Shown: in pieces, positions 5,925 to 43,885 of the stretch
How positions within the stretch are numbered: the first letter of the stretch is position 1
Layout of the letters: the number at the start of each line of letters is the position of its first letter
NCBI GenBank assembly: GCA_963749495.1
Contig: CAVVMW010000021.1
Location: forward strand, 32,001 to 96,000
Direction: 5' to 3'
Origin: an uncultured bacterium
GTDB taxonomy: Bacteria; Verrucomicrobiota; Verrucomicrobiia; Limisphaerales; UBA8199
DNA: 64,000 bases
Made by a program: the position numbers and the translations under genes
The notes under the pieces: model-generated
Told to the model about the DNA's origin: nothing
Database searches by the model: none
What the model saw: the letters and a program-made list of their open reading frames with translations, nothing else

Positions 5925-6066
5925 TACTGCACCGGACTTTGAGTGACTTCGGTATCTTTGTCGCAGCCTTTGTCGGAGCCTTTGTCGAGTTCAGCCGGAT
6001 TTCGACAAAGGTTTCGACAAAGGCTGCGACAAAGGTCGTGAAAGTCATTCAAAGTCCGGTGCAGTA
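5925..6066. mobile_element. MITE-like element: ~25-bp TIRs ending in TA around a 12-mer palindromic core (family B)
   Basis: TACTGCACCGGACTTTGAGTGACTT ... AAGTCATTCAAAGTCCGGTGCAGTA; core (CCTTTGTCG)n...(CGACAAAGG)n. Confidence 0.75.
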
Positions 6067-9076: not shown

Positions 9077-10363
9077 ATGAGCACTTCACATTGGACCAGC
9101 CGCAGCCGAGTTCAGGCCGCGCTCAACCATCAACAGCCCGACTGTGTCCCGATGGATTTCAGCGGCACGGCGGTGACGGGCATCCATGTCTCGGCGGTGA
9201 CGCGGTTGCGGCGCCGGTTGCTGGGCGAGCCGGACTACCGGGTGCGGGTGATCGAGCCTTACCAGATGCTGGGCGAACTGGATGACCGGCTGCGCGCCGC
9301 GCTGGGCATCGATGTGATTGGGGTAACCCCGCGCAAGTCCATGTTCGGCACCGAGTCCAAGGACTGGAAGCCCTTCACGCTCTTCGACGGCACCGAGTGC
9401 TTGGTGCCGGGCCAATTCAACGTCACCCGCGCCGAGGACGGCGGCTGGCTCATCTACCCGGAGGGCGACACCAGCGCGCCGCCCCGGGGCCACATGCCGC
9501 AGGGCGGTTATTTCTGCGACACGATCGTTTACCAGGAACCGATCGACGAGGCAAAGCTCGACCCGCAGGACAACCTCGAGGAGTTCGGCCTGCTGAGCGA
9601 GGCCGACCTGGCCTACTTCCGCGACAAAAAGCAGTGGGTGCAGGCCCGCCCCGATTACGGCTGCATCCTGACCATCCCCGGCGCAGGTTTCGGCGACATT
9701 GCCCAGGTCCCTGCCCCCTGGCTCAAGCGTCCCAAGGGCATCCGCGACATCTCGGAGTGGTATGTCTCGACCAAGACGCGCCGCGATTATGTGTACGCCG
9801 TCTTCGAGCGCCAGTGCGCCATTGCCCTCGAAAACACCAAGACCCTCATCGACCTGTTCGGCGGCCTCGTCCAAGCGGCCTGGATTACCGGCACCGATTT
9901 CGGCACGCAGCGCGGGCCGTTCATCTCCTGCCAGGCCTACCGCGACCTGTTCAAGCCGTTTCACAAGCAGATGGCCCAGCTCATCCATCGCCGCTCCAAC
10001 TGGAAGGTCTTCATTCATTCCTGCGGCTCGGTCTTCGCGCTCATCCCCGACTTCATCGAGGCCGGCTTCGACATCCTCAACCCGGTCCAATGCTCCGCCG
10101 CCGAGATGGACGCCGCCCGGCTCAAGCGCGAGTTCGGCAAGGACATCGTGTTTTGGGGCGGGGGCGTGGACACGCAGCAGACGATGCCCTTCGGCACGCC
10201 GGAGCAGGTTTATCGCCAGGTGCGCGAGCGAATCGGGCTCTTCAATGCAGGCGGCGGTTTTGTTTTCAACTCCGTCCACAATCTCCAGGGCAACACCCCG
10301 CTGGAGAACCTCGAGGCACTCTTCCGGGCGGTGCGGGAGGAAAAGCTAAAGGCTAAAGGCTAA
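9077..10363 (+). CDS. Uroporphyrinogen decarboxylase (URO-D)/MtaA-CmuA methyltransferase family protein
   Basis: R.RV..ALNHQQPD.VP.D, GTDFGTQ, HSCG, GFDILNPVQ, FWGGGVDTQ, GGGFVF..VHN.Q. Confidence 0.9.
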   Translation: MSTSHWTSRSRVQAALNHQQPDCVPMDFSGTAVTGIHVSAVTRLRRRLLGEPDYRVRVIEPYQMLGELDDRLRAALGIDVIGVTPRKSMFGTESKDWKPFTLFDGTECLVPGQFNVTRAEDGGWLIYPEGDTSAPPRGHMPQGGYFCDTIVYQEPIDEAKLDPQDNLEEFGLLSEADLAYFRDKKQWVQARPDYGCILTIPGAGFGDIAQVPAPWLKRPKGIRDISEWYVSTKTRRDYVYAVFERQCAIALENTKTLIDLFGGLVQAAWITGTDFGTQRGPFISCQAYRDLFKPFHKQMAQLIHRRSNWKVFIHSCGSVFALIPDFIEAGFDILNPVQCSAAEMDAARLKREFGKDIVFWGGGVDTQQTMPFGTPEQVYRQVRERIGLFNAGGGFVFNSVHNLQGNTPLENLEALFRAVREEKLKAKG

Positions 10364-10445
10364 AGGCTAAAGTGCGGAAGGGAGGGCGGACCTCAAAGGG
10401 GTATTCTCAATCGTCCCTTTCCGCACTCTAGCCTTTAGCCTTTTT
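10342..10445. terminator. Bidirectional hairpin built from (GGCTAAA)n/(TTTAGCC)n heptamer arrays between convergent genes
   Basis: GGCTAAAGGCTAAAGTGCGGAAGGGA pairs with TCCCTTTCCGCACTCTAGCCTTTAGCC, followed by a T run. Confidence 0.6.
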
Positions 10446-10784
10446 GTCAATTGTTGTGAAAATGGCGATCAACTGGTGGGTCTCGTCGAGGAGATCGGCC
10501 ATCCTGGGTGCGGGGACGCAACCGCTATCAACGAGCAGTTCGAGCCAATACTCGGTTTCATCGATTTCCTTGAGGCAGTGGCCGATCTTGGAAATGAATT
10601 CGCTCTTGGATCGGGCGCGCGCTGCCTCGCGATAGTTGGCGCCTACCGAAGTTGCGGAGCGCAGGACCTGTTTACCGAGCACCTGCGCCACCGTATCATT
10701 CTTTGGCAGCTTTGAATACATCCGAATGACTCGGAGCGCGAAGGCCTTCGTTCTCGGTTTCAGTTCCTGTGGTTGGTCATTCAT
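10428..10784 (-). CDS. Four-helix-bundle protein (TIGR02436/23S-IVS-protein/bAvd-like family)
   Basis: RTK.FALRVI....LP.....QVLGKQVLRSATSVGANYREA.RARS..EF.SK....LKE.DET.YWLELL. Confidence 0.92.
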   Translation of the reverse strand: MNDQPQELKPRTKAFALRVIRMYSKLPKNDTVAQVLGKQVLRSATSVGANYREAARARSKSEFISKIGHCLKEIDETEYWLELLVDSGCVPAPRMADLLDETHQLIAIFTTIDKKAKG

Positions 10785-10879: not shown

Positions 10880-10907
10880 CACTTTAGCCTTTAGCCTTTA
10901 GCCTTTT
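10880..10907. repeat. (TTTAGCC)n heptamer array, inverted relative to 10342-10374
   Basis: CACTTTAGCCTTTAGCCTTTAGCCTTT; contains the stop codon of the upstream minus-strand gene. Confidence 0.8.
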
Positions 10908-13104: not shown

Positions 13105-15599
13105 TTACTGCCCCGGCGCGACGACTTCGAAGGGGATGGCGGGCAGGGTGCCGATGGGGAAACGGCGGCGGTTGGCGGGGGCCTTTTTGCCGGCTGCGGG
13201 CTGGGCATTCTCGGCAAAGGCATTGACGATGAGATTGCCGGCCAGGCCGGGTTTGGCCTTGGCTGCGTCGCAGGCCAGGACCAGTTCCGAGTCCTGATCT
13301 GCGGAGACCACGTCACGGAGGACAATCCCGTCCGGAGGTTGGCTCAGCTCGAACTGGGCCTTGCCAAAGAAGGCCGCGAGAGCGCGGGAAAGCGGGACAC
13401 GCACGCTGCCGCCGGCGGGGAGTCGGACCAGGTCGGGTCTTTGGAATGTGGCCCTGGGCCGTGGGCGGCCAATGACCGCGGCCTGGAGTTCCTGGGCCGG
13501 GACCAGGTGGTGGTAGGCGAAGGCCTGCATCATATCGTCTGCGGGCACGGCCGGGCGGATGACCCTGCGGCCAGCGATGGTGGCCCGCCCTTGGATGGAG
13601 AGGGTGAACGGTTCATCGCTGGGCATTGGCGGGGCGGTGAGCGTGAGGCGGATCTGGTCCTGGCCGGCGGGCACACGGGCGCCACTCAGGGCGAACCCGG
13701 CGGGGGCGTCCTTGAGGGCGAGGGTGATTTCGTTGGTAAACCCGTCTTTGCGCAGCGCATAGACTGTGATCGGGATAGTCGCGCCGGCGCGGAGCGTCAG
13801 GCTGGAGGGGACGACCCGCAGCGCGAAATCGGGCTGGGGATCGCTCAGGCGCAGGCGATACGTGTAGTCCGGGCCGCCTTTGTGCTGGGCGTCGCCCAGA
13901 TGGAGGAAGTAGGTCCCGTCGGCCGGCAGAACGGCCGTTAGATACGAATCGGCGTGGTGCGTGCTGAGGCCCGAACCTTTGTCCTCGAAATCGTCATTGA
14001 AGGCAAGCTGGCGCCCGGTGGCATCGGTCAGCTTGAGCACTGAATCGAGCGGCGAGTCGAGCCGCCGCGCGCAGACTTCGGCCACGACCTGCTCACCGGC
14101 GTGTCCATCGAAGTGGAACAGGTCCCAGTCGCCCGGCGGGTCGATGCGCCCATTGACGATGATGGGGAGGGTGAGCGGTTGGGCGCTCTGCGGGGTGTTG
14201 TTGGGCTCGAGTTCCCGGGTCTCGGGCAAGGTGTCTGCCGCGAACGGAACGAGATTGGAAACCCACTCGCCGTTGCGCACCGAGAGCCAGTGAGTCCCCG
14301 GCTCGTTGAATGAGACGCTGAGCTTGCCGGCAGGCAAGTTCCATCCGGTGACTTCGATGCTGGTCTGGGCGCCGGCCGGGCCACCGAGCGGGAAGATGCC
14401 CGTCACAAAGGGCAACTCGCCGATGGCGATGCGATAGACAAAATCCTCGCGTCCGCGGTAGAGGGCGTCCTTGATGGCGATGGCATACTCGCCGTCCTTG
14501 GGGACTTTGTAGAACAGGACCGGGTCGGGGTGGAAGCGATAGTTATCTTCGTAGGCCAACTCCTTGCCGTGGGAATCGTAGAGCGTCAAGGCGGCCTGGA
14601 ACCACCCGGGCACGGCGTCGGCCAGGTAAGGGATCAACTCCCGCGCGCTGACGGCGATGACCAACTGCTGGCCTGCACGAGCGTGAAAGCGGTAGCGGTC
14701 GACTTGGCCCGGCAGGATTTGGCCGTTGATGACCGCCGGGAGGGTCACGGGCATATCGACCGGCGGTGTGTCGGGGCGTCCGTTGTTGCCTCGGGCCGGC
14801 CTCGGCAAGGGCGGCTGGGCGGGCTCAGGCCGTTTCTGCCGCAACTCGGGGAGCAGGCCCACGCGGAAGAGCAGGGGATTGGAGAGCCCGGTTGCGGTGC
14901 GCAGGCGCAACTCCCGAGTGCCCGGCTCAGCCTCCGCCGCAACGGCAACTTCGAGGCTGACTGTCTCAGCGATCGCGGGATTAGCCGAGCGCCGCTGGAA
15001 GGCAGCCAGTTTCTTGAGGATCTCCTGCACCATTTGCCGGTCCTCGGCGGTCCAGGTGACGTTGGTCGAGCCTGGCTTCTCGGCGGCGTCGGGGCGCTTG
15101 TTGTCCAAAGCGCGCGCGCGCTTGTCCCGCAGTTCTTTGAGTTTCTCTCGCAGGTCGTTGGCCTGTTTGGGGGTCAGCGGCTTCTCCTGCCGGAGGAGGG
15201 TGGCGCGCAGGCTGGCCCGGAGAAATTGGCGTTGGTTGCCCCGTCGAGGAACTGGCCGCCGACGGTCACTTGGAAGGTGGCGCCCTGGCGTCCGCCGGCG
15301 GGATAGACATAGCCGATGTGGGGCGGTGCCGGCTGGCCGTGGGCGGCAAGGCACAGAGCGAGGCAACAGAGAGCGGCGCCAAGGCCGCGCAAGACCACAA
15401 ACGGAGGACCTTTGTCGAAACCTTTGTCGAAACCTTTGTCGAAACCTTTGTCGAAACCTTTGTCGCAGCCTTTGTCGAAACCTTTGTCGGATCGGCCATT
15501 TTTCGACAAAGGCTGCGACAAAGGTGCCGACAAAGGTCCGGACTTGGACCCCCGGCGGCCATCTTTCAACCCTCCGCGCTGAGGCGGATGGGCCCTCAT
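13105..15599 (-). CDS. Secreted PPC-domain (pre-peptidase C-terminal) repeat protein of the DUF1553/DUF1501 cassette; -1 frameshift near 15212
   Basis: Start coupled to the DUF1501 stop (ATGA). Signal peptide then P.IGYVYPAGG.QG; TCC GGG CCA GC CTG lacks one base; downstream frame has LPAVING.I....VD.YRF, E.EPNN and RRL.SPLD repeats. Confidence 0.8.
15408..15538. repeat. Family B 12-mer palindromic core (CCTTTGTCGAAA)n...(CGACAAAGG)n inside the 5' end of the PPC gene
   Basis: Seven tandem 12-mers followed by three inverted units; translates as PLSAPLSQPLSK...DKGFDKGCDKGF. Confidence 0.85.
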
Positions 15600-16939: not shown

Positions 16940-17000
16940 ATCAGGACACTGCTAATTGCAGTTATTCAGACGCTTGCCCAAGAGCGAATGTTACAGCAGG

Positions 17001-17421
17001 ATCATGGAAGAAAGAATCATCAGAAACAGAATCATTTTTGGCAGAACAGAGAGATGCATTGGGCCTGGGATTCATGATGGGTTTGCTTTTCCGAGGTCTT
17101 GCTCCTTACCGTGAAAATGTCCGGAATTCAATTCGCGCATGGTTCAGATTCACCCACTGGAGAAACGGGAGCCTGGTGTGCGCCAGGAACCGGCGTTGGT
17201 GTTGCGCCGCACGATCATGGAAGAAAGAATCATCAGAAACAGAATCATTTTTGGCAGAACGGAGAGATGCATCGGGCCTGGGATTCATGATGGGTTTGCT
17301 TTTCCGAGGTCTTGCTCCTTACCGTGAAAGTGTCCGGAATTCAATTCGCGCATGGTTCAGATTCACCCACTGGAGAAACGGGAGCCTGGTGTGCGCCAGG
17401 AACCGGCGTTGGTGTTGCGCC
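17001..17421. repeat. 213-bp tandem duplication of the GxxExxY gene 3' end and downstream flank
   Basis: 17001-17208 vs 17214-17421, with three transition mismatches seen. Confidence 0.9.
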
Positions 17422-18122
17422 ATCTGCTCGATGCTCTTGGTAACTGCTGTGAGCCTGAACGCCGTGTCCCCAATTACCAGCCCAATCTTCTGCCTGCCGA
17501 GCAAACGAACCCCGTCCCATAGTTCCACTTCACCGGGCTCTGCATTCGGACCATTGAGCAAATGGTTCATCGCCTCGCGGTAGGGGCTTATCTCGAGGAA
17601 TGCCCCCCAGTCCTCCAATAGCTCGATGAGCTTCCTCCTGAACGTGCCGCTTGCCACGTCGAGCTCACGCCATTCATCGTCCACAATGCAAAACCTCCTC
17701 CTCTGGGCCGCGTCCAGGGTAGTCGATACAAACTCCCATTCGACGCTCGGTGGGCGAAGATTGAGCAGTTTTCCATGCCTCAAACCGGCCATCAGGAGGT
17801 AATTGAGCGCCTGTGCGCGGTGGGCTGGGCTGATGGCCTCCGCTGTCTTCACCTCAACCATCATCCCATGCGCGAAGACAAGGTCCATGTAGTAGTCCTT
17901 TCGAAAGGACTCATGCGTAAGACGAATCCGGACCTCCTTCTCAATTGGTGCAATGCCTGATTCGGTGCATCGCCCTGCGATAGCCCCCTTGTACAACTCC
18001 TCATCCAAGAGCCTGCCAAATTCGTTGTGGACCGCGAAAACGGCCCCCATGACTCGCTTGTCCATTGCATGGAACTCCTCCTGGCCAAAGGCCCGTATTT
18101 CCGTGGCAACTTCGATCGGCAT
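17319..18122 (-). CDS. GxxExxY family PD-(D/E)XK nuclease-like protein, long form with a degenerate second copy of the domain
   Basis: VHNEFGRLLDEELY, Y.MDLV...MMVEVK, H.AQALNYL..AGL..G.LLN; second half WGAFLEISPY..H.RRFL.HT.L....WVN. Confidence 0.85.
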   Translation of the reverse strand: MPIEVATEIRAFGQEEFHAMDKRVMGAVFAVHNEFGRLLDEELYKGAIAGRCTESGIAPIEKEVRIRLTHESFRKDYYMDLVFAHGMMVEVKTAEAISPAHRAQALNYLLMAGLRHGKLLNLRPPSVEWEFVSTTLDAAQRRRFCIVDDEWRELDVASGTFRRKLIELLEDWGAFLEISPYREAMNHLLNGPNAEPGEVELWDGVRLLGRQKIGLVIGDTAFRLTAVTKSIEQMAQHQRRFLAHTRLPFLQWVNLNHARIEFRTLSR

Positions 18123-22261: not shown

Positions 22262-22492
22262 CGAATGACGAATGACGAATGACGAATGACGAATGCGTCG
22301 GCTATCGGCTATTGTCTATCGGCTATCTGGCGCGAATGACGAATGACGAATGACGAATGCGTCGGCTATCGGCTATTGTCTATCGGCTATCTGGCGCGAA
22401 TGACGAATGACGAATGACGAATGACGAATGACGAACGCAGAGGGCCTTCTTCCCATGATTTTGCCACCCATGATTTTGCCTTCCCTGATTTT
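22262..22492. repeat. Higher-order heptamer array [(GAATGAC)n-(TCGGCTA)-block]x2-(GAATGAC)n plus a 15-nt-period ATGATTTTGCC triplet
   Basis: Read directly in the divergent intergenic region. Confidence 0.9.
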
Positions 22493-22515
22493 GCGCCGGG
22501 GGCTAATTTCAGCGG

Positions 22516-24297
22516 ATGCGAACACTCGCTTCACTGCTGCTGGTTTGCCTGGCCGCCGGTTGTGCCAGGATGTCTCCCTCGACCGGCCGGGACGCGGCCG
22601 GCGCCGACGCCGCCTTCACACAGTTGGCCGAGGAGTATCTCTCCGGCTACCTCGCCTGGCGTCCGCAGACCGGCACGGCGCTCGGGTTTCACCAGTATGA
22701 TGGGAAGCTCACCGATTACAGCCCCATCTCGCTCCAGACCGAATTGGCCCGGCTCAAATCGTTCGACTCGAGGCTGGCGGGGCTGAACACCAGCCGGCTG
22801 GGCCCGCGCGCCTTTCACGATTACCGCATCCTGCGCGCGGCCATCCAGCGGGAAATCTTCAGCTTCGACCGGATGCGGGTCTTTTGGCAAAACCCGATGA
22901 CCTACGCCGGCGCCCTGGACGTGAGCGTCTATATCAAGCGCGACTTTGCGCCGCTCCAGGAGCGGGTCGGCTCGATCCTGGGCCTTCTGGACCAGGCGCC
23001 GGCGCTCTTCGGGGCGGCGCGGGCCAACTTGGCCGACTCGCTGCCGCGCCCGCAAATCGAGACCGCCATCGAACAGGCGGAGGGCGCCGCGGAGTTCCTG
23101 GCCAAAGACCTGGTCCAGGCACTCAAGGACGTGAAAAACCCCGGGCTCATGGAGCAATTCAACGCGTCCAACCAGCGCGCCATCCAGGCCCTGCGCGACT
23201 ACGCCGCCTGGCTCAAGGAGCAGAAGCTGCCCAAGGCCAACGACCGCTACGCCCTGGGCCGCGAGAAATACATGGAACTGCTCCAATACGGCGAGTTAGT
23301 GAGTGCCTCGCCGGAGCGATTGCTGGAGATCGGCCTGCGCGAGTTGCGCCGCCAGCAGGAGGTCTTTGCCAGCGCCGCCCGGCAGATCGATCCGGCCCGC
23401 AAGCCCACGGAGGTGTTCCAGGCCATCCAACGCGACCATCCCACCGAGCAGAGCCTCATTGCCGACACGGCGCGAGACCTCGAGAGCATCCGCCGGTTCC
23501 TGGTCCAGCGCCGCCTGATCACCCTGCCTTCACAAGTCCGCCCGCAAGTGGCCGAGACCCCGCAGTTCCTGCGCGCCACCAGCTTCGCCTCGATGGACAC
23601 GCCCGGCCCGTTCGAGACCCGGGCCACCGAGGCCTACTATTACGTCACGCCCGTGGAACCCGATTGGACGCCTGCCCAGAAAGACGAATGGCTCACTGCC
23701 TTCAACTACTACACCACCAACGTGGTCTCCATCCACGAGGTCTATCCGGGCCACTATGTCCAGTTCCTCTGCCTGAAGGCCTCGCCGGCCGGCAAGGTCG
23801 AGAAGATCTTCTCCAGCTATGCCTTTGTCGAGGGCTGGGCCCATTACGCCGAGCAAATGATGCTCGATGAAGGCTTCGGCCGGGGCGGCGCCGCAATCGC
23901 CCAACGCGAGGACTTGGTCCGCGCGGCCAAATACCGCATGGCCCAGGCCGACGAAGCCCTCCTGCGCGTCTGCCGGCTCTGCGTCTCCATCCAAATGCAC
24001 TGCCAGGGCATGACCGTGGACCAGGCCGCCCAATTCTTCCAGGACAATTGCTATTACCAGCCAAAACCCTCGCGCGCCGAGGCCGTGCGCGGCACCTTCG
24101 ACCCCGAATACCTCTATTACACGCTGGGCAAGATGGAACTGCTCAAGCTGCGCGACGACTGCCGCAAACAGGAGGGCGCGGGCTTCACGCTCCAAAAATT
24201 CCACGACGAACTCCTGCGCCACGGCGCGCCCCCGGTCCGCTTGCTGAGGGAAATCATGCTCAAAGACAGAGCCGCGTGGGACCAGGCCATCGAATAG
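22516..24297 (+). CDS. DUF885 family lipoprotein (putative metallopeptidase)
   Basis: Lipobox LAAGC; HEVYPGHYVQ, FVEGWAHYAEQMM and Y..YT.GK..L..LR motifs. Confidence 0.92.
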   Translation: MRTLASLLLVCLAAGCARMSPSTGRDAAGADAAFTQLAEEYLSGYLAWRPQTGTALGFHQYDGKLTDYSPISLQTELARLKSFDSRLAGLNTSRLGPRAFHDYRILRAAIQREIFSFDRMRVFWQNPMTYAGALDVSVYIKRDFAPLQERVGSILGLLDQAPALFGAARANLADSLPRPQIETAIEQAEGAAEFLAKDLVQALKDVKNPGLMEQFNASNQRAIQALRDYAAWLKEQKLPKANDRYALGREKYMELLQYGELVSASPERLLEIGLRELRRQQEVFASAARQIDPARKPTEVFQAIQRDHPTEQSLIADTARDLESIRRFLVQRRLITLPSQVRPQVAETPQFLRATSFASMDTPGPFETRATEAYYYVTPVEPDWTPAQKDEWLTAFNYYTTNVVSIHEVYPGHYVQFLCLKASPAGKVEKIFSSYAFVEGWAHYAEQMMLDEGFGRGGAAIAQREDLVRAAKYRMAQADEALLRVCRLCVSIQMHCQGMTVDQAAQFFQDNCYYQPKPSRAEAVRGTFDPEYLYYTLGKMELLKLRDDCRKQEGAGFTLQKFHDELLRHGAPPVRLLREIMLKDRAAWDQAIE

Positions 24298-24401
24298 TGC
24301 GGAGTGCGGAGTGCGGAATGCGGAATCCTTCGGAGGAAGGGAGACGGAGGGTGGAGGGCGGAATGACGAATGACGAATGACGAATGACGAATGACGAATG
24401 A
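24297..24401. repeat. Composite heptamer element copy A (partial), upstream of lexA
   Basis: (GCGGAGT)n-GAATCCTTCGGAGGAAGGGAGACGG..-(GAATGAC)n; direct repeat of 30345-30435 and reverse complement of 28690-28775. Confidence 0.85.
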
Positions 24402-24423
24402 GCCCGCAGTCAGTAGTCAGTAG

Positions 24424-24570
24424 CTAGAGCCTGTCCCCAAAGCCCCGCGAGTGGGGGACCTTTGTCGCAGCCTTTGTCGAAACCTTTGTCGGATTGGCCC
24501 TTTTTCGACAAAGGCGCCGACAAAGGCTGCGACAAAGGTTCGGAACCAGGGCTTTTGGGACAGGCTCCAG
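24424..24570. mobile_element. MITE-like element: family B core with different, IS-like TIRs
   Basis: CTAGAGCCTGTCCCCAAAGCCC ... GGGCTTTTGGGACAGGCTCCAG around (CCTTTGTCG)n/(CGACAAAGG)n. Confidence 0.75.
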
Positions 24571-24619
24571 CCACTGACTCCCTCGGTTTTTTTATTGTTG
24601 ACAAGCGCGGCCTTCATAT

Positions 24620-24633
24620 TGGACACTTGTTCA
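24620..24633. promoter_or_regulatory. Candidate LexA operator (TGGACACTTGTTCA) just before the lexA start; TTGACA at 24598-24603
   Basis: Near-perfect palindrome TGAACA-N2-TGTTCA with one mismatch, containing GAAC/GTTC-type half-sites. Confidence 0.45.
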
Positions 24634-24635
24634 GT

Positions 24636-25268
24636 ATGAAGGAACTGACGAAGAGACAACGCCAGGTCCTGGAGTTCATCCAGGACCGCCAGGATGCAGC
24701 GGGCCTCGTTCCGACCTACCGCGAGATAGCCGCGCATTTCGGTTTCAACAGTCCGAACGCAGTGCTGGCGCACGTCAAGGCCCTGCAGAGCAAGGGGTTT
24801 TTGAAAAACCAGCCGGGCCGCGCCCGGACTTTCCAGGTGATGAATCCCAGCGCGCCGAGGCACCGGTTGCGGCCGCGCATCCTCTCGGTGCCCATCTACG
24901 GCACCATCCCTGCCGGTGTCCCGATCGAGGCCGTCCAGGAAGACGAGGGGTGCGTGCTGATCGACGTGGAGACGCTGGGGATTCGGCCGAGCGCCCGCAC
25001 CTTTGGCTTGAAGGTCCGGGGCGATTCCATGCTCGGCAAGAACATCGTGGACGGCGACATCGCCATCATCGAGCATGGCCTGGCGCCGCGTCCCGGCGAC
25101 GTGGTGGCCGCGCTCATCAACGGGCAGGTCACGCTCAAGACTTTTGTCGTGCAGCGGGGCAAGGCATTTTTGCGCGCGGAAAATCCCCGCTATTCGAACC
25201 TGGTCCCCCAGGAAGAACTGCAAGTCCAGGGCGTTATGGTGGCCCTGGTGCGCAGGCGGAAAGGCTAA
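24636..25268 (+). CDS. lexA: SOS repressor LexA
   Basis: LTKRQ..VL.FI, PT.REIA..FG..SPNAV..H..AL..KG.L, G.IPAG.P (Ala-Gly cleavage site), V.GDSM (Ser), TLK (Lys). Confidence 0.95.
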   Translation: MKELTKRQRQVLEFIQDRQDAAGLVPTYREIAAHFGFNSPNAVLAHVKALQSKGFLKNQPGRARTFQVMNPSAPRHRLRPRILSVPIYGTIPAGVPIEAVQEDEGCVLIDVETLGIRPSARTFGLKVRGDSMLGKNIVDGDIAIIEHGLAPRPGDVVAALINGQVTLKTFVVQRGKAFLRAENPRYSNLVPQEELQVQGVMVALVRRRKG

Positions 25269-25486
25269 AGGCTGAAGGCTAAAGGCTAAAGGTGAGGGAC
25301 GAATGACAAATGACAAATGACAAATGACGAATGACGAATGACGAAGGGGGGCCGAGCAGGGAAGGGCGCGAAGCGTTTTGGACTGGCGCAGTCCAAAACC
25401 TGGCGGCCTGGATACCGAGTGCCGACGGGCGCCGCCTCGTCTCCGCTTCGTCATTCGTCATTTGTCATTCGTCATTCGTCATTCGA
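25261..25486. repeat. (GGCTAAA)n at the lexA stop, then inverted (GAATGAC)n...(GTCATTC)n arrays enclosing a collapsed family A palindrome
   Basis: 25299-25344 vs 25447-25486 are inverted; GTTTTGGACTGGCGCAGTCCAAAAC at 25375-25399. Confidence 0.85.
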
Positions 25487-25518
25487 CCCTCGTCTCTCGA
25501 CCCTCGGCCCTCTTCGCC

Positions 25519-28500
25519 ATGACGGAATCTCGACAGCGGGCCAGAGCGATCGTGCATCTGGATGCGGATGCGTTTTTCGCCTCGGTAGAGCAGGCGGCGG
25601 ACGCGCGGCTGCGCGGCAGGCCCGTGGCTGTGGGGGGCGACAAGCGCGGCATCATTGCCTCGGCCTCCTACGAGGCGCGCAAGTTTGGCATTTACACGCC
25701 CATGCCCACCGCCCTGGCGCGCCGGCTCTGCCCCAGGCTGGTGCTCCTGCCGGGCGACTTCGACAAGTATGAGCTCTTTTCGCGGCTGATGTTTTCGTAT
25801 GCCTACGATTTCACGCCGGACGTGGAGATCGGCTCGATTGACGAGGGATATTTCGATTTGACGGGGTCGCGGCGGCCGGCGCTGAGCATTGCCGAGACGA
25901 TCCGGCAGGCGATCCGGCAGGCGCTCCGGCTGTCGGTCAGCGAGGGCATCGCTGCCAACAAACTGGTCAGCCAGATCGCCTCGAAGCTGAACAAACCCGC
26001 GGCGTTTCAATTCGTGCCGGGCGGGCAGGAGGGGCAATTTTTGGCGCCGCTGGCCAACCAATGGCTGCCGGGAATCGGCCCCCGGACGGCGGCGCAGTTG
26101 AATGCGGCCGGCCTGGCGCGCATCGGCCAGGTCGCCTGCACGCCGCTGGACCTGCTGGGGTTGCTGGTGGGCAACCAGGCGCCGCAGTTGCACCGCTTTG
26201 CCTTGGGCCAGGATGAGCGGCCGGTCATCCCGGCGCGCGCCCCGGCCAAGTCCTACGGCCAACAGGAGACCTTTGCGGCGGACACCACCGACCAAGAGTT
26301 CCTGGAGGCGGCCTTGCAGCGGATGGCGGACCACCTCATGGCCAAAGTGCGCGCGGACGGCAAGAGCATCCGCACCCTCACGGTCAAGGTCCGCTACAAC
26401 GACATGGACGAGGAGCAGGCGAGCGAGAGCCTGGCCGAGCCCACGGACCTGGAAACCGAAATCTATACCCGCGTCATCCTGCTCCTGCGCCGGGCCTGGA
26501 AACGCCGGGTCAGCCTCCGCCTGGTCTCGCTCAAGCTGGACAATGTCTATGACGGCCCTTTCCGGAGCGGGCTGGCCCTGGACACCGCCGCCCGCCGCCA
26601 CGACGCCCAGCAGCGCCTGGCCGGCGCAGTCGATCAGTTACGCGAAAAATATGGCCGCAGCGCCCTCCTCCGGGGACACGACTTCGTCTTAGCCGAGTCA
26701 GTCCACAGTCCAGAGTCCACAGTCCACAGTCCACAGTCCGGAAGCCGGAACGCGGAGGACGGAAGACGGAGGACGGAAGACGGAGGGCGGAAGACGGAAT
26801 GCGGACTCCGGACTCGGGAATTTGAGATCTCGGATCTGAAATCTGATATCCGGACTGTGGACTGTGGACTGTGGACTGTGGACCGTGGACTGACTCTGGA
26901 CTGTGGACTACCCCTGAACGTCCACAGTTATTATTCGTTTCTGGATTCCACGCTTTCGATCCGGGCGGTGGTGGATTGGGCCAAACGGCACGAGCTGCCG
27001 GCCATTGCGCTGACCGACCGCAACAACCTGCACGGGGCGGTGGAGTTTGCCCAGGCAGCCGCCGAGGCGGGGATTAAGGCGATTATCGGGGCTGAACTCG
27101 CCTGGCAGGGGCGGCGCGTCTGCCTCTACGTCCAGGACCAGACGGGCTACCGCAATCTCTGCGGCATCTTGAGCGCCAAGACAGCGCGAGGTGGCGAAGA
27201 GGACTCGCCGGGAACGATTGGAGGCCAATACAAGAGACAAAAAGGACAACAGGGACGCCAGGATGCCGACTCAGCGGCAGCCCGGGAGATGAAGATGGAT
27301 TTTCAGGGCAATGTCCGCGCTCCGTTGCGGGCTCCCGCAATTTTCGATTCGCCGGAGCACACCGCCGGTCTGCTGGCGGTGAGCCCCTGTGCCGAACTGG
27401 CCCGGTTTTTTCCCGGCCGGTTCTACCTGGCGGTCGAGAATCCCGATGCCCTGGGCGGGAGGACCGTTCCCCTGCCTTGCGTGCCCTGGTTGCCGGTCCA
27501 TTACGAGCAGCCTGCCGACCGCTGGAAGTACGACGTGGTGCAAAGCATCCGCACGCTGACCCTGCTCCGGCAGCAGCATCCCCAAAAGCGGCTGGGAGGC
27601 GAATATCATTTCCGGTCCGGCGCGGAGCTGCAGCGGCTCTTCGGCGCCCGGCCGGAATGGCTCCAACACAGCCATGAGATTGCCGACCGCTGCCAGTTCG
27701 CCTTCCGCCTGGGCAAACCGCAGTTCCCCGCCTACGCCCCGGCGGACGGCTCGACACCGGCCGCCTTTCTGCGCCGGTTGGCGCTGGAAGGGCTGCAACG
27801 CCGTTACCCCACCGAGCACGCCCGCCTCAAACCCCAGCTCGAAGAGGAGCTGCTCATCATCACCGAGGTCGGCTACGAGGAATACTTCCTGGTCATGTGG
27901 GACATCCTGCAGGAATGCCTGCGGCGCGCCATCCACTGGATCACGCGCGGCAGCGCCGCCGATTCCCTCGTCTGCTATTGCCTGGGCATCAGCGACGTTT
28001 GCCCCATCCGCTTCGATCTCTACTTCCGCCGTTTCCTCAACAAAGAGCGCATGGCGCTCAGCAAGCTGCCCGACATCGATGTGGATTTCGCGCACGACCG
28101 CAAGGACGACGTGCTCGATCTGATCTTCGAAAAATACGGTCCGGCGCACGCGGCCATTGTGGGCGGCTTCTCCACGTTTCAATCGCGCAGCGCCTTTGCC
28201 GAAGCGGCCAAAGTGCTGGGGGTCTCCGAATTCCAGGTCCGCCGCATCACCGAGCGGCTGCCGCATTTCTCGCGCGCCTCCGAGCTGGCCCAAGCCGCCG
28301 CCGCCACCCTCGAGTGCCGCGATTTGCCGCTGGACCAGGAGCCCTACGCCAGCGCGCTGCGGATGGCGCGATTTCTCGACGGCTTTCCCCGCTACCCCAA
28401 GATGCACCCGTGCGGGCTGGTGCTCTCGCGCCAGGCCATGTCCGAAATCACCCCCTGCTTCGTCTCCGCCAAGGGCTATCCCACCACGCACTTCGACATG

Positions 28501-30423
28501 GACTCGGTCGAGGCCGTGGGGTTGATCAAGATGGACATCCTCGCCCAGGGCGGCCTGGCGGTCATGCGCGATGTGTTGGCCGAAGTTAGTCCAGAGTCCA
28601 GAGTCCAGAGTCCACAGTCCGGATATCAGATTTCAGATCCGAGATCTCAAATTCCAGAGTCCGGAGTCCGCACTCCGCATTCGCCATTCGTCATTCGTCA
28701 TTCGTCATTCCCCCCTCCGCCATCCGTCTCCCTTCCTCCGAAGGACTCCGCATTCCGCACTCCGCACTCCGCATTGGCGGACCCGGAGGTCTGGGAGATG
28801 ATCGCCGGGGGCCACGCCCGCGCGGTGCATCACATCGAGAGCCCGGCCATGGTATCGCTCTGCAAAATGTGCGGCGTGCGGGACATTGACACGCTCATCG
28901 CCATCGTCTCGGTGATTCGCCCCGGCGCGGCCAACGAGAGCAAGAAGATGGAATTTGCGCGGCGCTACCAGGGCCTGACCCCGGTGCGCTATGCGCATCC
29001 GTCGCTGGAGCCGTGCCTGCGCAGCACTTACGGCCTGGTGGTCTATGAAGAGCATATCCTGCAGATCTGCGAGGCCTTCGCCGGCCTGCCGCCGGGCCGG
29101 GCGGACGTCCTGCGCCGGGCGCTGGGCAAAGAGAAGGAGGGCCTGATTGCGCAGATCCAGGGTGAGTTCGCCCAGTGCGCCCGGCGGCGCGGCCGCACCG
29201 AGGCCCAGATTACGGAGGTGTGGGGGCTGGTGGCCGGTTTTCGAGGCTATGCCTTCTGCAAGGCGCACAGCACCGCTTACGGCGTCGAGGCCTATCAATC
29301 GGCCTGGCTCAAGCGGTATTACCCGGCCCAGTTCATGGCCGCGGTCCTCACCAACGGCAAAGGCTTTTATGACCCGCTGGTCTATGTGCTCGAATGCCAT
29401 CGGCTGGGCATTTCGCTGCTGCCGCCCTCGGTCAACGACCCCGGCCCGCAATTCAGGGTGCGCGAGGGCAAGATCCGCGTGCCGCTCCTGCGGGTCAAAG
29501 GGCTGACCGGCCGCACTTCTGAAACCATCCTGGCCGAGCGCGACCGCGACCGGTTTTCGTCGCTGCCCGATTTCCTGCTCCGCGTCCAGCCGCTCCCGCA
29601 AGAGATGGAGGCGCTCATCCGGGTGGGGGCCTTCGATGAGTTCGGCAAATCCCGCACGACGCAGGTACCTGGGAATTCAAATCGCTCTGTGCGCAGTCCA
29701 GAGTCAGTCCACAGTCCACAGTCCACAGTCCAGAGTCCACAGTCCACAGTCCAGAGTCCACAGTCCACAGTCCAGAGTCCACAGTCCGGATATCAGATTT
29801 CAGATCCGAGATCTCAAATTCCAGAGTCCGGAGTCCGCACTCTGCATTCGTCATTCGTCATTCGTCATTCGTCATTCCGCCCTCCACCCCCCGCCAGCCT
29901 CTGGCTGTTCCCACCGGGAAACCTCGACCATTTGCCTTCCGTCCCGCTGTCGGAACCCAATCGGCTGCAACGGCTGCGCTGGGAGGAAGAGTTGCTGGGC
30001 TTCCCCGCGAGCGGCCATCCGCTGGAGTTGTTTCCCGATGTGGCCTGGGACACCTATTGTCCCGTCTGCCGGCTCGGCCAGCACGTGGGCCAGCAGGTGG
30101 TCACTTGCGGCCTGGTCATCGAGCAGCGCCTCTTTCACCAGACCACCGGCGAGCCGATGAAGTTCCTGACCCTGGCCGATTGGACCGGCATGGTGGAGAC
30201 CGAACTCTTCGCCCGCACCTACCGCTCCTACGGCCTGAACACGATCCGCTACCGCGTCCTGGAAATCTCGGCCACAGTCGAGCCGTTTGAAAACGGGCGC
30301 GGCTATACCCTGCGCGTGCTCCGGGCGGGCAAGGCGAGGGGGAGGGAATGCGGAGTGCGGAGTGCGGAGTGCGGAGTGCGGAATCCTTCGGAAGGAGGGA
30401 GACGGGGAACGAATGACGAATGA
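25519..30423 (+). CDS. Fused Y-family DNA polymerase IV (DinB) + C-family DnaE2-like DNA polymerase alpha subunit
   Basis: N-terminal HLDADAFFASVEQ, ASYEARKFG, SIDEGY and little-finger domain; then PHP (HSYYSFLDS, ALTDRNNLHG), RGSAA.SLV.Y.LGI, PDIDVDF, HPCG, KMDIL, YEE.I.Q, YAFCKAHS and OB fold. Confidence 0.9.
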   Translation: MTESRQRARAIVHLDADAFFASVEQAADARLRGRPVAVGGDKRGIIASASYEARKFGIYTPMPTALARRLCPRLVLLPGDFDKYELFSRLMFSYAYDFTPDVEIGSIDEGYFDLTGSRRPALSIAETIRQAIRQALRLSVSEGIAANKLVSQIASKLNKPAAFQFVPGGQEGQFLAPLANQWLPGIGPRTAAQLNAAGLARIGQVACTPLDLLGLLVGNQAPQLHRFALGQDERPVIPARAPAKSYGQQETFAADTTDQEFLEAALQRMADHLMAKVRADGKSIRTLTVKVRYNDMDEEQASESLAEPTDLETEIYTRVILLLRRAWKRRVSLRLVSLKLDNVYDGPFRSGLALDTAARRHDAQQRLAGAVDQLREKYGRSALLRGHDFVLAESVHSPESTVHSPQSGSRNAEDGRRRTEDGGRKTECGLRTREFEISDLKSDIRTVDCGLWTVDRGLTLDCGLPLNVHSYYSFLDSTLSIRAVVDWAKRHELPAIALTDRNNLHGAVEFAQAAAEAGIKAIIGAELAWQGRRVCLYVQDQTGYRNLCGILSAKTARGGEEDSPGTIGGQYKRQKGQQGRQDADSAAAREMKMDFQGNVRAPLRAPAIFDSPEHTAGLLAVSPCAELARFFPGRFYLAVENPDALGGRTVPLPCVPWLPVHYEQPADRWKYDVVQSIRTLTLLRQQHPQKRLGGEYHFRSGAELQRLFGARPEWLQHSHEIADRCQFAFRLGKPQFPAYAPADGSTPAAFLRRLALEGLQRRYPTEHARLKPQLEEELLIITEVGYEEYFLVMWDILQECLRRAIHWITRGSAADSLVCYCLGISDVCPIRFDLYFRRFLNKERMALSKLPDIDVDFAHDRKDDVLDLIFEKYGPAHAAIVGGFSTFQSRSAFAEAAKVLGVSEFQVRRITERLPHFSRASELAQAAAATLECRDLPLDQEPYASALRMARFLDGFPRYPKMHPCGLVLSRQAMSEITPCFVSAKGYPTTHFDMDSVEAVGLIKMDILAQGGLAVMRDVLAEVSPESRVQSPQSGYQISDPRSQIPESGVRTPHSPFVIRHSSFPPPPSVSLPPKDSAFRTPHSALADPEVWEMIAGGHARAVHHIESPAMVSLCKMCGVRDIDTLIAIVSVIRPGAANESKKMEFARRYQGLTPVRYAHPSLEPCLRSTYGLVVYEEHILQICEAFAGLPPGRADVLRRALGKEKEGLIAQIQGEFAQCARRRGRTEAQITEVWGLVAGFRGYAFCKAHSTAYGVEAYQSAWLKRYYPAQFMAAVLTNGKGFYDPLVYVLECHRLGISLLPPSVNDPGPQFRVREGKIRVPLLRVKGLTGRTSETILAERDRDRFSSLPDFLLRVQPLPQEMEALIRVGAFDEFGKSRTTQVPGNSNRSVRSPESVHSPQSTVQSPQSTVQSPQSTVQSPQSGYQISDPRSQIPESGVRTLHSSFVIRHSSFRPPPPASLWLFPPGNLDHLPSVPLSEPNRLQRLRWEEELLGFPASGHPLELFPDVAWDTYCPVCRLGQHVGQQVVTCGLVIEQRLFHQTTGEPMKFLTLADWTGMVETELFARTYRSYGLNTIRYRVLEISATVEPFENGRGYTLRVLRAGKARGRECGVRSAECGVRNPSEGGRRGTNDE
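26695..26910. repeat. Composite heptamer element copy B: in-frame insert at the DinB/DnaE linker forming a 48-bp hairpin
   Basis: Arms 26695-26742 and 26849-26896 with two mismatches. Confidence 0.9.
28588..28775. repeat. Composite heptamer element copy C, in-frame inside the DnaE core
   Basis: 17 consecutive 7-nt units from 28591, drifting from CCAGAGT to CGTCATT, between MRDVLAE and DPEVWEMI. Confidence 0.9.
29695..29892. repeat. Composite heptamer element copy D, in-frame between the HhH and OB regions
   Basis: Direct repeat of copy C with a longer CCACAGT/CCAGAGT tract. Confidence 0.9.
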
Positions 30424-30525
30424 CGAATGACGAATGCGGGGTGCAGACTCCGGACTCTGGAATTTGAGATCCGGGATCTGAAATCTGATATCCGGACTGT
30501 GGACTGTGGACTGTGGACTGTGGAC
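30345..30525. repeat. Composite heptamer element copy E, spanning the polymerase stop codon
   Basis: Reverse complement of copy C; supplies the ...ECGVRSAECGVRNPSEGGRRGTNDE* tail. Confidence 0.9.
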
Positions 30526-34122: not shown

Positions 34123-36345
34123 TCAATCCCCCTTCATCGGGATGCTCTTCGGCGCCGGTTGGCCCGGGTTGCGTCCAACTGTGGTGCGAACGACGGCTCC
34201 TTGTGTGAGCACCATCCCCTCCAGCCGCCTGTGGTCGACCTTGCCCGTGCCCAGGAGCGGCAATTGGGCGAGCACCTCCAGCCGGCGCGGCACGGCCAGG
34301 TTGCCCAGGCCGCGGGCGCGGAGGGCCTCTCGAATCTGCGGCACAGTCAGCCTCGACTCGTTTGTGACCGCAATCAACTGCTCCCCGTGGTCCTGGTCCG
34401 GCCCGGCGATGACCGCCACCGCGCACCGCAGACCGTATTGGGGAAAGGCCCCGGCCAGGGCCTCCTCGACGGCCGTCAGGCTCACCATCTCACCCCCGAT
34501 CTTGGCAAAGCGCTTGAGCCGCCCCAGGATGTGAACAAATCCTTCCGGACACACCCGCACAATATCGCCCGTGTCGTACCACCCGCCCAGGGCCTGGAAT
34601 GCCGCGTTGGCCTCCGGGTTCAAATAGCCCCGCATCACGTTCGGCCCGCGGACGAACAATCGCCCGACCGCTCCGCCTTGACTCTCTCCCAGTCCTTCGA
34701 CCGGCTCCAACCGGTACTCGATGCCCGGCAGGAATTGCCCCGTCGAGCCCGCGCGCGGGCGCATTGGCAGATCGACGCTCAGGGCGGGGCTGCACTCGGT
34801 GACGCCGTAGCCTTGGAGGATGCGGATGCCGAAGCGGCGCGCCCAGAGCGCGGCGGTGCTCTCCTGGAGCTTTTCGGCGCCGGCAAATGTGTAGCGCACG
34901 GTGCGGAAATCATAGGCGTGCGCCTTGCGCCCGTAGCCGGCCAGGAATGTGTTGGTGCTGAGCAGAACCGTGCAATTGAAATTGTACACTGCCGAGGGCA
35001 CCACGCGGTAGTGCAGCGGCGAGATGTAGAGAAACACGAACACTCCGCGCACCAGCGGCAAAAACAGGCCGATGTTCAAGCCGAAACAGTGGAACAATGG
35101 CAGGGCATTGAACAGCCGGTCGGTTTCCATCAAATCGATGACCGAGACCACCTGCCGCAGATTGGAGAGCAGATTGCGATGGGTCAGTTCCACGCCTTTG
35201 GGCTCGCCTTCCGAGCCGCTGGTGAACAGGACCACCGCGGTGTCCTGGGCGGCAGGCCAGCGCGGAGCGATTGGCCAACGCAGGACGCGCCGGGCCAGCG
35301 CGCCCAGCTTGCGCGCCCAACCGATGGCGGCCCGCTCGTCTTCCAGGAAGACCCACTGGATGCCGGCCGCTTCGAACGGCGCAAGGTCCAGGCCCAGGCG
35401 CTCGACGAATCCCCTGGCCGTGATGACCCGCCTCAGCCCAGCCAGGCGCGCGCAGCCCAGCAGCACCCCCGCCCCGCCCGAGTAATTGAGGACTGCCGGG
35501 ACCTTGTTCGCCGCCCACAGGGCCAGCAGCACCACCGGCATCGCGTTCACGTTGGGGAGCAGCACACCCACCCGCGGCCCCGCCGACTGGGGCCATTGCC
35601 GCCACCGGGCCGCCAGCAAGTCCGCCCCAACCAGCAGCCGCCGGCAGGTCAATTGCTGGAGCGAGACGTCCTGCACCGCCACCCGGCCCGGCCATTGCCG
35701 CGCCGACTCGGCAATCGCCGCCGGCAGCGTCGCCGGGCCAAGCTCCTGCTCGGTCTCGAATTGCTGCCTCACCATCTGGTCCCGCAGCCAATCGGTCAGC
35801 CGCGTCCTGCCCTCGGCCGCGCTGACGTGGTCGAGCCTGGGCGGCGCCAGCACCGGGCTGAAATGGACCGAGAGTCGCGGAAACCATCGCTTGGAATCCG
35901 GGTTCCGGGAGAACGGCAGCCGCCGCGCGCCGCGCAGGTAGGCCGTAATCACCTTGGGCCGGGTCTTGAAGATGAGAAAACCGGTGCCGTCAAAGAGCTT
36001 CATCAGCGAGCCCGTACAGGAAAGCCGCCCCTCGGGGAAGAGCACCAGCCGGCCCCCGCCTTGCAGGTACTCGGCCACGTGCTTGATCGGGTAGGGCGAA
36101 GCCATGTCCAGCGGAAAGGTGCGGCGGTTGACCATGAGACGCTTGTGCAGCCAACTCACCTCCGCCGCCGTGCTCGAGGTCACGAAGCGCCAATCCTCCT
36201 CCAGGCACACCCCGATCAGCAGCCAATCCCACCAGGAAACATGGTTGGGCAGCAGCAGGGCCGGCCCCGGCGTCCTGAGCACCGCCTCGTTCTCGGCGCG
36301 AAAACCGTAGAGCAATCGGAGCAGCCCGCGAACGAGCCATCTCAT
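34123..36345 (-). CDS. aas: Aas-like bifunctional acyltransferase / AMP-dependent acyl-ACP synthetase
   Basis: PNHVSWWD and FPEG (PlsC domain); FTSGSEG.PKGV, GYG.TE.SP, WYDTGD, GR.KRFAKIGGEMVSL. Confidence 0.88.
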   Translation of the reverse strand: MRWLVRGLLRLLYGFRAENEAVLRTPGPALLLPNHVSWWDWLLIGVCLEEDWRFVTSSTAAEVSWLHKRLMVNRRTFPLDMASPYPIKHVAEYLQGGGRLVLFPEGRLSCTGSLMKLFDGTGFLIFKTRPKVITAYLRGARRLPFSRNPDSKRWFPRLSVHFSPVLAPPRLDHVSAAEGRTRLTDWLRDQMVRQQFETEQELGPATLPAAIAESARQWPGRVAVQDVSLQQLTCRRLLVGADLLAARWRQWPQSAGPRVGVLLPNVNAMPVVLLALWAANKVPAVLNYSGGAGVLLGCARLAGLRRVITARGFVERLGLDLAPFEAAGIQWVFLEDERAAIGWARKLGALARRVLRWPIAPRWPAAQDTAVVLFTSGSEGEPKGVELTHRNLLSNLRQVVSVIDLMETDRLFNALPLFHCFGLNIGLFLPLVRGVFVFLYISPLHYRVVPSAVYNFNCTVLLSTNTFLAGYGRKAHAYDFRTVRYTFAGAEKLQESTAALWARRFGIRILQGYGVTECSPALSVDLPMRPRAGSTGQFLPGIEYRLEPVEGLGESQGGAVGRLFVRGPNVMRGYLNPEANAAFQALGGWYDTGDIVRVCPEGFVHILGRLKRFAKIGGEMVSLTAVEEALAGAFPQYGLRCAVAVIAGPDQDHGEQLIAVTNESRLTVPQIREALRARGLGNLAVPRRLEVLAQLPLLGTGKVDHRRLEGMVLTQGAVVRTTVGRNPGQPAPKSIPMKGD

Positions 36346-43789: not shown

Positions 43790-43885
43790 CCGCGAGTGGG
43801 GGGACCTTCGTCGCAGCCTCTGTCGGCGCCTTTGTCGGATTGGCCATTTCTCGACAAAGGTACCGACAAAGGCTGCGACAAAGGC
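43790..43885. repeat. Family B 12-mer palindromic core
   Basis: CCGCGAGTGGGGGGACC.TCGTCGCAGCC...CGACAAAGG x3; the same leader as the 24445 copy. Confidence 0.8.

Follow-up and report, generated by a model that had tools for sequence, protein, structure and literature searches.

Several classes of repeated sequence are known that are carried within bacterial genes and translated with them. Rickettsia palindromic elements are in-frame translated inserts of about 50-70 residues in conserved proteins (PMC10969869), and intragenic repetitive extragenic palindromes (REPs) with GTAG or CGTC tags have been recorded in genes for UvrABCD, RecBCD-type enzymes, PolA, the error-prone DnaE2 and RNA helicases (Di Nocera et al. 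2013, PMC3733652). The latter study includes intragenic REPs of the verrucomicrobium Opitutus terrae, and neutral-loop and mutator explanations are both weighed there. Heptamer repeats are represented by the TAACTGA repeats of Beggiatoaceae and, as summarised in the same source, the long simple sequence repeats of Mrazek et al. 2007 (PMC4679880), and by the heptanucleotide elements of Geobacter (PMC2700814); repeats whose orientation is determined by stop codons appear in both reports. The present work concerns a composite repeat built of drifting heptamers in a 64,000-nucleotide stretch of DNA (the window) from an uncultured bacterium of the Verrucomicrobiota, order Limisphaerales (assembly GCA_963749495.1, contig CAVVMW010000021.1, positions 32,001 to 96,000). 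Five related copies, designated A to E, lie around and within a cassette composed of lexA and a gene encoding a fusion of a DinB (Y-family) and a DnaE (C-family) polymerase.

It is considered probable, at about 0.6, that these copies are members of a genome-wide heptamer family which were copied locally and are kept in frame in permissive loops of the polymerase as tolerated passengers. The bias of intragenic repeats for repair genes is already known, as published for REPs (PMC3733652). The additions made here are the measurement of a hotspot gene across the order, local copying, and the interchangeability of repeat classes within the same loops. The heptamer tracts resemble intragenic REPs in being translated in frame, several to a gene, and in a repair and replication bias (12 of 56 annotated target genes against 3 of 87 random genes). 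REPs are, however, tagged palindromes of 20-40 bp associated with RAYT (REP-associated tyrosine) transposases (PMC3733652), whereas the present repeats are drifting heptamer arrays of 100-220 nt without fixed ends, are closest to their own neighbours, and share a given loop with other repeat classes in other genomes. Copies A-E are periodic arrays of 105-216 nt and not short palindromes tagged with GTAG or CGTC, and C and D fold like shuffled sequences. In-frame translation and the long hairpin of copy B recall the Rickettsia elements. The latter are palindromes of defined length and conserved peptide, dispersed over unrelated genes (PMC10969869), unlike the present copies, which have no fixed length or peptide, are not hairpins in the case of C and D, and spread locally. 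In the available part of the Beggiatoaceae report, intragenic copies are short and mostly peripheral and the genes 3' of the repeats are not enriched for repair (PMC4679880); here, long many-unit composites reside inside core enzymes, and both a gene hotspot and local copying were measured. The closest counterpart of the host enzyme is the putative mutasome of Bacteroidetes, an active PolY and DnaE2 pair that is unfused (Timinskas and Venclovas 2019, PMC6511836). In both cases two apparently active Y-family and DnaE-type polymerases are encoded together without ImuA/ImuB, but here as one polypeptide behind lexA. A term search returned no passage on a DinB-DnaE fusion in the available text of PMC6511836 and PMC12926913. 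A wider literature search, from which subscription papers mostly fell outside, as did the supplementary list of open reading frames (ORFs) of PMC3733652, found no paper on repair-gene-concentrated heptamer arrays or on such a fusion.

Heptamer tracts in the genome and at the cassette

The genome assembly comprises 11.37 Mb in 31 contigs and is 88% complete. It holds 1,022 tracts of period 7, covering 78 kb, against 114 tracts of period 6 and 62 of period 8; periods 9 and 12 are abundant as well (351 and 323 tracts). Genes were predicted using our own dicodon caller, whose 7,094 genes account for a coding fraction of only 70%, and which therefore under-calls. On this annotation 810 tracts are intergenic, 117 extend over gene ends and 95 lie inside 80 called ORFs, with weak coding support on one flank for 53 of the 95. 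An inverted partner is present within the tract itself or at no more than 1.5 kb for 329 of the 1,022. The same units recur across families, a reversed control pattern being near zero, and the two unit patterns are found at low counts in three genomes (G026, G029 and G038, 82-96% complete) where the fusion was not found. A heptamer tract lies no more than 400 bp from six of eight four-helix-bundle loci; the window contains a TIGR02436 four-helix-bundle gene (10437-10754, minus strand) with inverted AAAGGCT arrays on both sides (10341-10372 and 10882-10906). A period of 7 far above the neighbouring periods, and a dispersed, mostly intergenic placement with frequent inverted pairs, are shared with the bacterial heptamer tandem repeats. 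STRR1-3 heptamer repeats were reportedly described in cyanobacteria by Mazel et al. in 1990; the STRR2 and STRR3 units presumably resemble TGTCATT and CCACAGT of this genome.

The bias of the tracts for the cassette is real. The 8-kb bin containing it holds 1,089 bp of tract and ranks first among 1,436 bins, the runner-up holding 818 bp. A 40-nt core (26817-26856) occurs four times in the genome when up to 4 mismatches are allowed, three of these being exact, and every occurrence lies in the cassette; three further genomic matches elsewhere have 5-6 mismatches. Recent local copying is suggested by this confinement. Among 268 long tracts, 18 have their best match less than 10 kb away, nine times direct and nine times inverted, against 1.06 expected, and copies A-E are all among the 18. 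The cassette copies are thus likely to have arisen by copying from one another over a few kilobases. A flanking tract accompanies 36 of the 80 ORFs with an internal tract, against 625 of 3,532 other genes longer than 300 aa (p 2.5e-8). The best copy of the composite outside the cassette is intergenic (G000:C15:477728-478020) and adjoins a vWA (BatA/BatB-like) orthologue. An earlier analysis of the window, made from its letters and ORFs (the sequence-only reading), had proposed an ORF-tolerant, locally spreading repeat comparable to the Rickettsia elements and limited to the cassette. Local best matches for all five copies, the locus-specific core and lineage-specific inserts agree with such a repeat, and the near-identical composite is indeed confined to this site. 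It is not, however, a single discrete element of the cassette: it belongs to a genome-wide family of some 1,000 tracts, and in relatives these loops are occupied by repeats unrelated to it.

All five copies are present where they had been reported, each being given here on the plus strand. Copy A (24297..24401) is an intergenic composite of a GGAGTGC block, a spacer and a GAATGAC block; it begins at the stop codon of a DUF885 gene and is devoid of the 40-nt core. Copy B (26695..26910) is a self-complementary heptamer hairpin, with one arm per orientation, in the linker between DinB and PHP (aa 393-464). Copy C (28588..28775), the fullest composite, follows the KMDIL motif (aa 1024-1086) and takes the place of part of the ancestral loop. 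Copy D (29695..29892) consists of a CCACAGT-type array and the core and occupies the HhH-OB linker (aa 1393-1458). Copy E (30345..30525), inverted with respect to C and D, had been taken for a mere flank of the polymerase gene; it encodes the last 26 residues and the stop codon (30421-30423), and its remainder lies 3' of the gene. The five are overlapping patches of 105-216 nt with differing ends and block counts, and have no defined length and no conserved termini. The longest exact matches are 74 nt for C-D (direct) and 47 nt for both B-C and B-D (inverted). A and E do enclose lexA and the polymerase as direct repeats, as had been stated, but with only 84% identity over 90 nt (longest exact match 28 nt), and A is closer to inverted C, its best match (95% over 96 nt). 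The description of copy C as heptamers always having A at position 5 applies to 17 in-register units; it does not extend to the tail of C or to other family units, for example CCGCCCT and CCGTCCT.

Reading frame and loops of the fusion polymerase

The fusion gene (25519..30423, plus strand) encodes 1,634 aa with IMS, IMS_C, PHP, DNA_pol3_alpha, finger and HhH domains and lies downstream of lexA; copies B, C and D are contained in its one open frame, as originally described. Fusions of this kind are common among the 40 relatives searched, and lexA is present at 27 of 33 fusion loci, several of the remaining loci being fragments. An alignment of 25 orthologues was assembled from the window's own gene and 24 of 32 fetched loci with an open frame exceeding 1,300 aa. 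The eight loci excluded for a frame below 1,300 aa consist of fragments and of G003, which carries a frameshift; because the alignment was selected on an open frame, the openness of the orthologues is not usable as evidence. The catalytic motifs of both halves (DADAFF, SIDE, PDIDVD, KMDIL) are intact and conserved over the 25 sequences. Loop lengths measured from anchor to anchor extend from 56 to 185 aa at B, 30-123 aa at X, 41-158 aa at C and 68-169 aa at D. Site X (about 27175..27335, plus strand; approximately aa 553-606), absent from the sequence-only reading, is a non-heptamer in-frame insert in the PHP domain; it is missing from all three same-genus genomes, and part of it has two other matches in the genome. 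The B, X, C and D loops are predicted from sequence to be flexible and permissive. Relative to Taq Pol III alpha, C falls in the gap between residues 628-649 and D between residues 949-984.

The inserts at B, X, C and D differ among relatives, which bears out the lineage-specific insertion that a homologue alignment had been proposed to reveal. Even in the three same-genus genomes, whose flanks are 84-88% identical at the nucleotide level, each carries a different insert at B, C and D, made of other heptamer units or of sequences that resemble REP palindromes by eye. The start of the C insert is common to G001 and the end of the D insert is like that of G003, so seeds were apparently inherited and then remodelled in place. 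The check for target-site duplications found no close empty allele, as the same-genus genomes carry other inserts and C replaces host sequence. Among the relatives, tracts lie almost solely within the coding sequence and not in the flanks, a weak test as the flanks are short. The fusion gene of G020 (L042) contains six to seven tracts, two of them at sites unused in the window, and internal tandem duplications of about 25-35 codons are present at site C of G005 (L044) and site B of G037 (L037).

Stop codons suffice to account for the orientation of the copies. In the A/E orientation stops occur in all three frames, and in the C/D orientation all three sense frames are stop-free; copy B has a single open sense frame, namely the one used. 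C and D are inverted because that orientation is stop-free, and a function for the inversion is unneeded. An inversion system deduced from the inverted C and D was accordingly rejected as unnecessary. The proposal of the sequence-only reading that the copies are pairing or recombination sites modulating the polymerase is unsupported on the same ground, and also because the three same-genus genomes do not share the A-E arrangement.

The units of B, C and D are 7 nt long, not a multiple of three, and yet lie within a coding frame. Thirteen tracts are bridged by a homologue, of which four were dropped as intergenic or shadow-frame; eight of the other nine are in frame, the exception being priA. 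This outcome has a probability of about 1e-3, calculated by hand under random frames, with three of the eight being paralogous kinases at one site. The inserts appear to be filtered by selection as protein, and the keeping of the frame together with the avoidance of stops indicates that they are translated and not excised. The priA gene (G000:C1:8139-10678) shifts frame within an insert of about 240 nt that opens with a long GGAGGAC-type array; either an error of the assembly or a genuine OFF allele may account for the change.

The accuracy of the assembly is of direct concern at copy D, which is flanked on both sides by three extra single bases (29664, 29668 and 29898, plus strand) with a net in-frame effect. 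Compared with all three same-genus genomes, the bases at 29664 and 29668 are extra, as is the third at 29898. Isolated frame-breaking gaps number 20 in 218 kb aligned to G001 and G002, or about 1 per 11 kb. Of the 10 single extra bases in these 218 kb, a G preceding TAC accounts for two and a GCCTC context for one, the same settings as near D. Removal of the three bases leaves the frame open and restores the conserved QYWEF and QLWLF motifs. From these comparisons the three bases are probably assembly errors; copy D is in frame either way, but the frame in which its peptide is read probably differs from that in the assembly. One DNA run, containing 6% of the words, yielded a single 121-nt contig between C and D, which stops short of the extra bases. 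In another part of the genome, a uvrA-like region (G000:C24:73907-79062, L222) was called as four ORFs, two of them with in-frame heptamer inserts, and is possibly one double-length UvrA broken by assembly indels.

Target genes and neighbouring features

The polymerase gene stands out from the background in which it is found. Orthologue pairs from about 400 kb each of G001, G002 and G003 have 0.20-0.26 length-variable loops per 1,000 aa, and the polymerase has four in 1,343 aa (G001), three in 1,322 (G002) and one in 1,000 (the split G003 gene). Seven relatives, sampled over 1.96 Mb in total, have 0-3.1 in-gene tracts per 100 kb; the polymerase genes of six relatives contain 25 tracts against 0.61 expected, four of the six having been picked for having tracts. 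In the 23 genomes that possess the fusion, mfd and the replicative dnaE together, counting the window's own, 32 tracts are present in the fusion (9 genomes), 17 in mfd (7 genomes) and one in the replicative dnaE (1 genome); these counts overstate significance, since kin are not independent. mfd had originally been picked as a control gene. In the form G000:C6:1044621-1048346 (L214) it is the second most loaded gene, with four tracts totalling 489 bp, two of which best match the array directly upstream, and it has about seven length-variable loops across the 23 genomes.

Annotation was carried out for 57 of the 80 tract-bearing ORFs, those in the most tract-rich regions, which correspond to 56 genes as uvrA is split. 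Most are ordinary enzymes, kinases and transporters. Repair and replication functions nevertheless account for 12 of the 56 (the fusion, mfd, mutL, recG, uvrA, ada, uvrC, priA, addA, addB, rdgB and dnaE), against 3 of 87 in a length-weighted random draw from G001 and G002, named under a strict E-value and with many genes unnamed. The Fisher p is 0.0012, and 0.013 when all unannotated ORFs are counted as non-repair. In samples of the relatives, 5 of 15 tract genes are addB (twice), rdgB, priA and uvrD, four of the five being same-genus orthologues of targets in this genome. That every repair gene is a hotspot was ruled out: mutS has no heptamer tract in 17 genomes, and uvrB is without added length in 13 of 16. 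The mutS genes (L260-L276) match their model in pieces in 14 of the 17 genomes, mostly near position 375, a variable segment, and in the window's own genome one half is out of frame with the other. Both rpoC and uvrB were judged by match spans, which for rpoC are uniform except in one genome (spans only, no DNA being compared); carB is split in this group and was unused as a control. Within the window, an Aas-like acyltransferase/AMP-binding gene (34123-36345) has a short loop where the G001 and G002 orthologues have different repeat inserts.

The remaining features of the cassette and of its surroundings are as follows. The lexA gene (24636..25268, plus strand; 210 aa, TIGR00498 above cut-off) has its stop codon within an AAAGGCT array. 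Directly before its start lies an operator-like palindrome of 16 bp (24619..24634, no strand assigned), which is a predicted LexA box. Such palindromes occur, by eye, upstream of lexA in most relatives, and the assignment is made on account of this conservation; a scan for the motif GAAC-N4-GTTC was uninformative (24 matches against 22.9 expected). The gap between lexA and the polymerase contains an inverted pair of heptamer arrays that the sequence-only reading did not list. Its left arm F1 (25260..25345, plus strand) is of AAAGGCT and then GAATGAC type and its right arm F2 spans 25447..25512 on the minus strand; the 100 nt separating them include a REP-like palindrome found at about 132 genomic loci. 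Upstream of lexA, a hairpin repeat of 12-mers unrelated to the heptamers (24425..24570, no strand assigned) gives about 287 BLASTN loci in the genome. This CTTTGTCG-type family is met in the window at 5956-6036, 15408-15537, 24458-24538 and 43816-43885. Upstream of the DUF885 gene, a 64-nt GAATGAC/TCGGCTA heptamer unit at 22262-22494 forms 2.4 mismatch-free repeats, after which comes a 15-nt repeat. At 16996-17421 and 17319-18122, a tandem duplication of 213 bp (98% match) overlaps the 3' end of a GxxExxY (PD-(D/E)XK-like) gene.

Explanations and significance

In the favoured account, a short heptamer seed in a loop would grow by 7-nt slippage, and neighbouring arrays would then overwrite the loop in patches, in either orientation, by template switching or gene conversion. 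Selection would act only against inserts that break the frame, introduce a stop or disturb a folded core. The same account would cover mfd, mutL, recG, uvrA, uvrC, addA, addB and priA. The length of the fusion gene, its four to six permissive loops and its probable LexA repression and dispensability would make it a hotspot, as selection against extra loop sequence would be weak. Several points weigh against this account. Repair genes are preferred over other long dispensable genes (12/56 against 3/87), which tolerance does not obviously explain. The polymerase gene of G005 holds five tracts, and 199 kb of other DNA only one. The replicative dnaE also has variable loops, yet carries a single tract in 23 genomes; the presence of loops is hence insufficient, and expression level or essentiality must be assumed. 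The flexible surface character of the loops is in itself a prediction from alignments.

The preference for repair genes could also originate from the insertion step, repair loci receiving more repeat copies, for instance through newly made repair enzymes, foremost the error-prone polymerase, acting near their own gene or through damage-induced transcription that exposes the loci to template switching. Such a bias would fit the fusion polymerase and mfd as the two most loaded genes, the excess in the six relatives (25 tracts against 0.61, with four picked for having tracts), the loading of the non-coding flanks of the cassette (A, F1, F2, E) and flanking tracts that are 2.5 times likelier at genes with internal ones. 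Flank enrichment is, however, also predicted by local seeding alone, and the flanks are spared in the relatives, where almost all tracts are intragenic, as far as short flanks permit this weak test. Considering further the tract-free mutS (17 genomes), the uvrB genes without added length (13/16), the 14 of 23 genomes without a tract in the fusion, which is hence not sufficient, and the low counts of unit patterns in G026, G029 and G038, where it is apparently not needed, we regard an insertion bias as unlikely. The polymerase as sole writer of the repeats was judged weak, given the tract-free fusions and the patterns in the latter three genomes. It also seems rather unlikely that repair loci, the fused SOS polymerase foremost, are active repeat sinks whose loops are rewritten by cis-acting, damage-linked copying, possibly by the polymerase itself. 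If this were true, the fusion would be an order-wide self-diversifying mutagenic enzyme, and the old repair-gene bias of intragenic repeats would be explained. An adaptive mutator switch, in which selected 7-nt slippage or recombination toggles or alters the polymerase and other repair genes, draws on the frame shift caused by a change of a single unit, the long exact matches of C with D (74 nt, direct) and of B with both C and D (47 nt, inverted), the frame change inside the priA insert and a similar speculation for REPs (PMC3733652). We find it improbable: conservation of the arrangement is lacking even among same-genus genomes, 8 of the 9 tracts bridged by a homologue remain in frame, and the split same-genus orthologue (G003) breaks at a single base outside the inserts. 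Moreover, a C-D deletion or B-C inversion would delete or reverse catalytic motifs, the deletion irreversibly, and the priA shift may be an assembly error at the rate estimated for this genome (about 1 per 11 kb). A role as a regulatory switch is not supported.

Non-autonomous mobility offers a further origin for the repeats, as the end repeats of small selfish cassettes of the four-helix-bundle or intervening sequence (IVS) type moved by a dedicated enzyme. The tracts near 6 of 8 four-helix-bundle loci, the inverted partners of 329 of 1,022 tracts, the recurrence of units across families with a reversed control near zero, and the heptamer repeats before the ORF of the Coxiella IVS (PMC4990558, in the part available) all speak for it. 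Copies A-E are, however, overlapping patches of 105-216 nt without fixed ends or length, C substitutes for host sequence rather than adding to it, the nearest relatives of the copies are local and not dispersed, and no mobilising enzyme was identified, though none was searched for. Mobile elements could supply seeds but would leave the local composite unexplained, and as the full explanation they are decidedly improbable. Control at the level of RNA would consist of the hairpin of copy B and long-range B-C, B-D, C-E and D-E duplexes in the lexA-polymerase transcript, which would be cut (RNase III type) or would slow translation and so damp the polymerase. Copy B does fold strongly (-132.7 kcal/mol, z -11.95), the computed duplexes amount to -325 kcal/mol for C-E, -276 for B-D and -249 for both B-C and D-E, and inserts of several relatives are hairpin-like by eye. 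C and D alone, however, do not surpass shuffled sequences in folding (z -1.8 and -1.5), the heptamer family ordinarily occurs as hairpins, the pairing partners are not conserved, and a side effect on the mRNA is possible without a selected function; we hold this explanation very improbable. Hardly credible, finally, is an assembly artefact in which reads of one array were polished into neighbouring arrays. The assembly does contain single-base indels (20 in 218 kb, and three probably around D), but the copies differ by many substitutions, block order and orientation, one long frame stays open, and repeat inserts are found at these sites in independent genomes as well.

The bias of REPs for replication and repair genes was noticed in 2013 and left without explanation, and a mechanistically different repeat class shows the same bias here. 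As the same polymerase loops are occupied by heptamer arrays or by REP-like palindromes, depending on the genome, the cause would lie with the target genes rather than with the element. With four homologous loops in 25 orthologues, independent inserts and a measured signal of local copying, the fusion gene constitutes a natural test set, and the inserts map the tolerant sites in a fusion of two polymerases.

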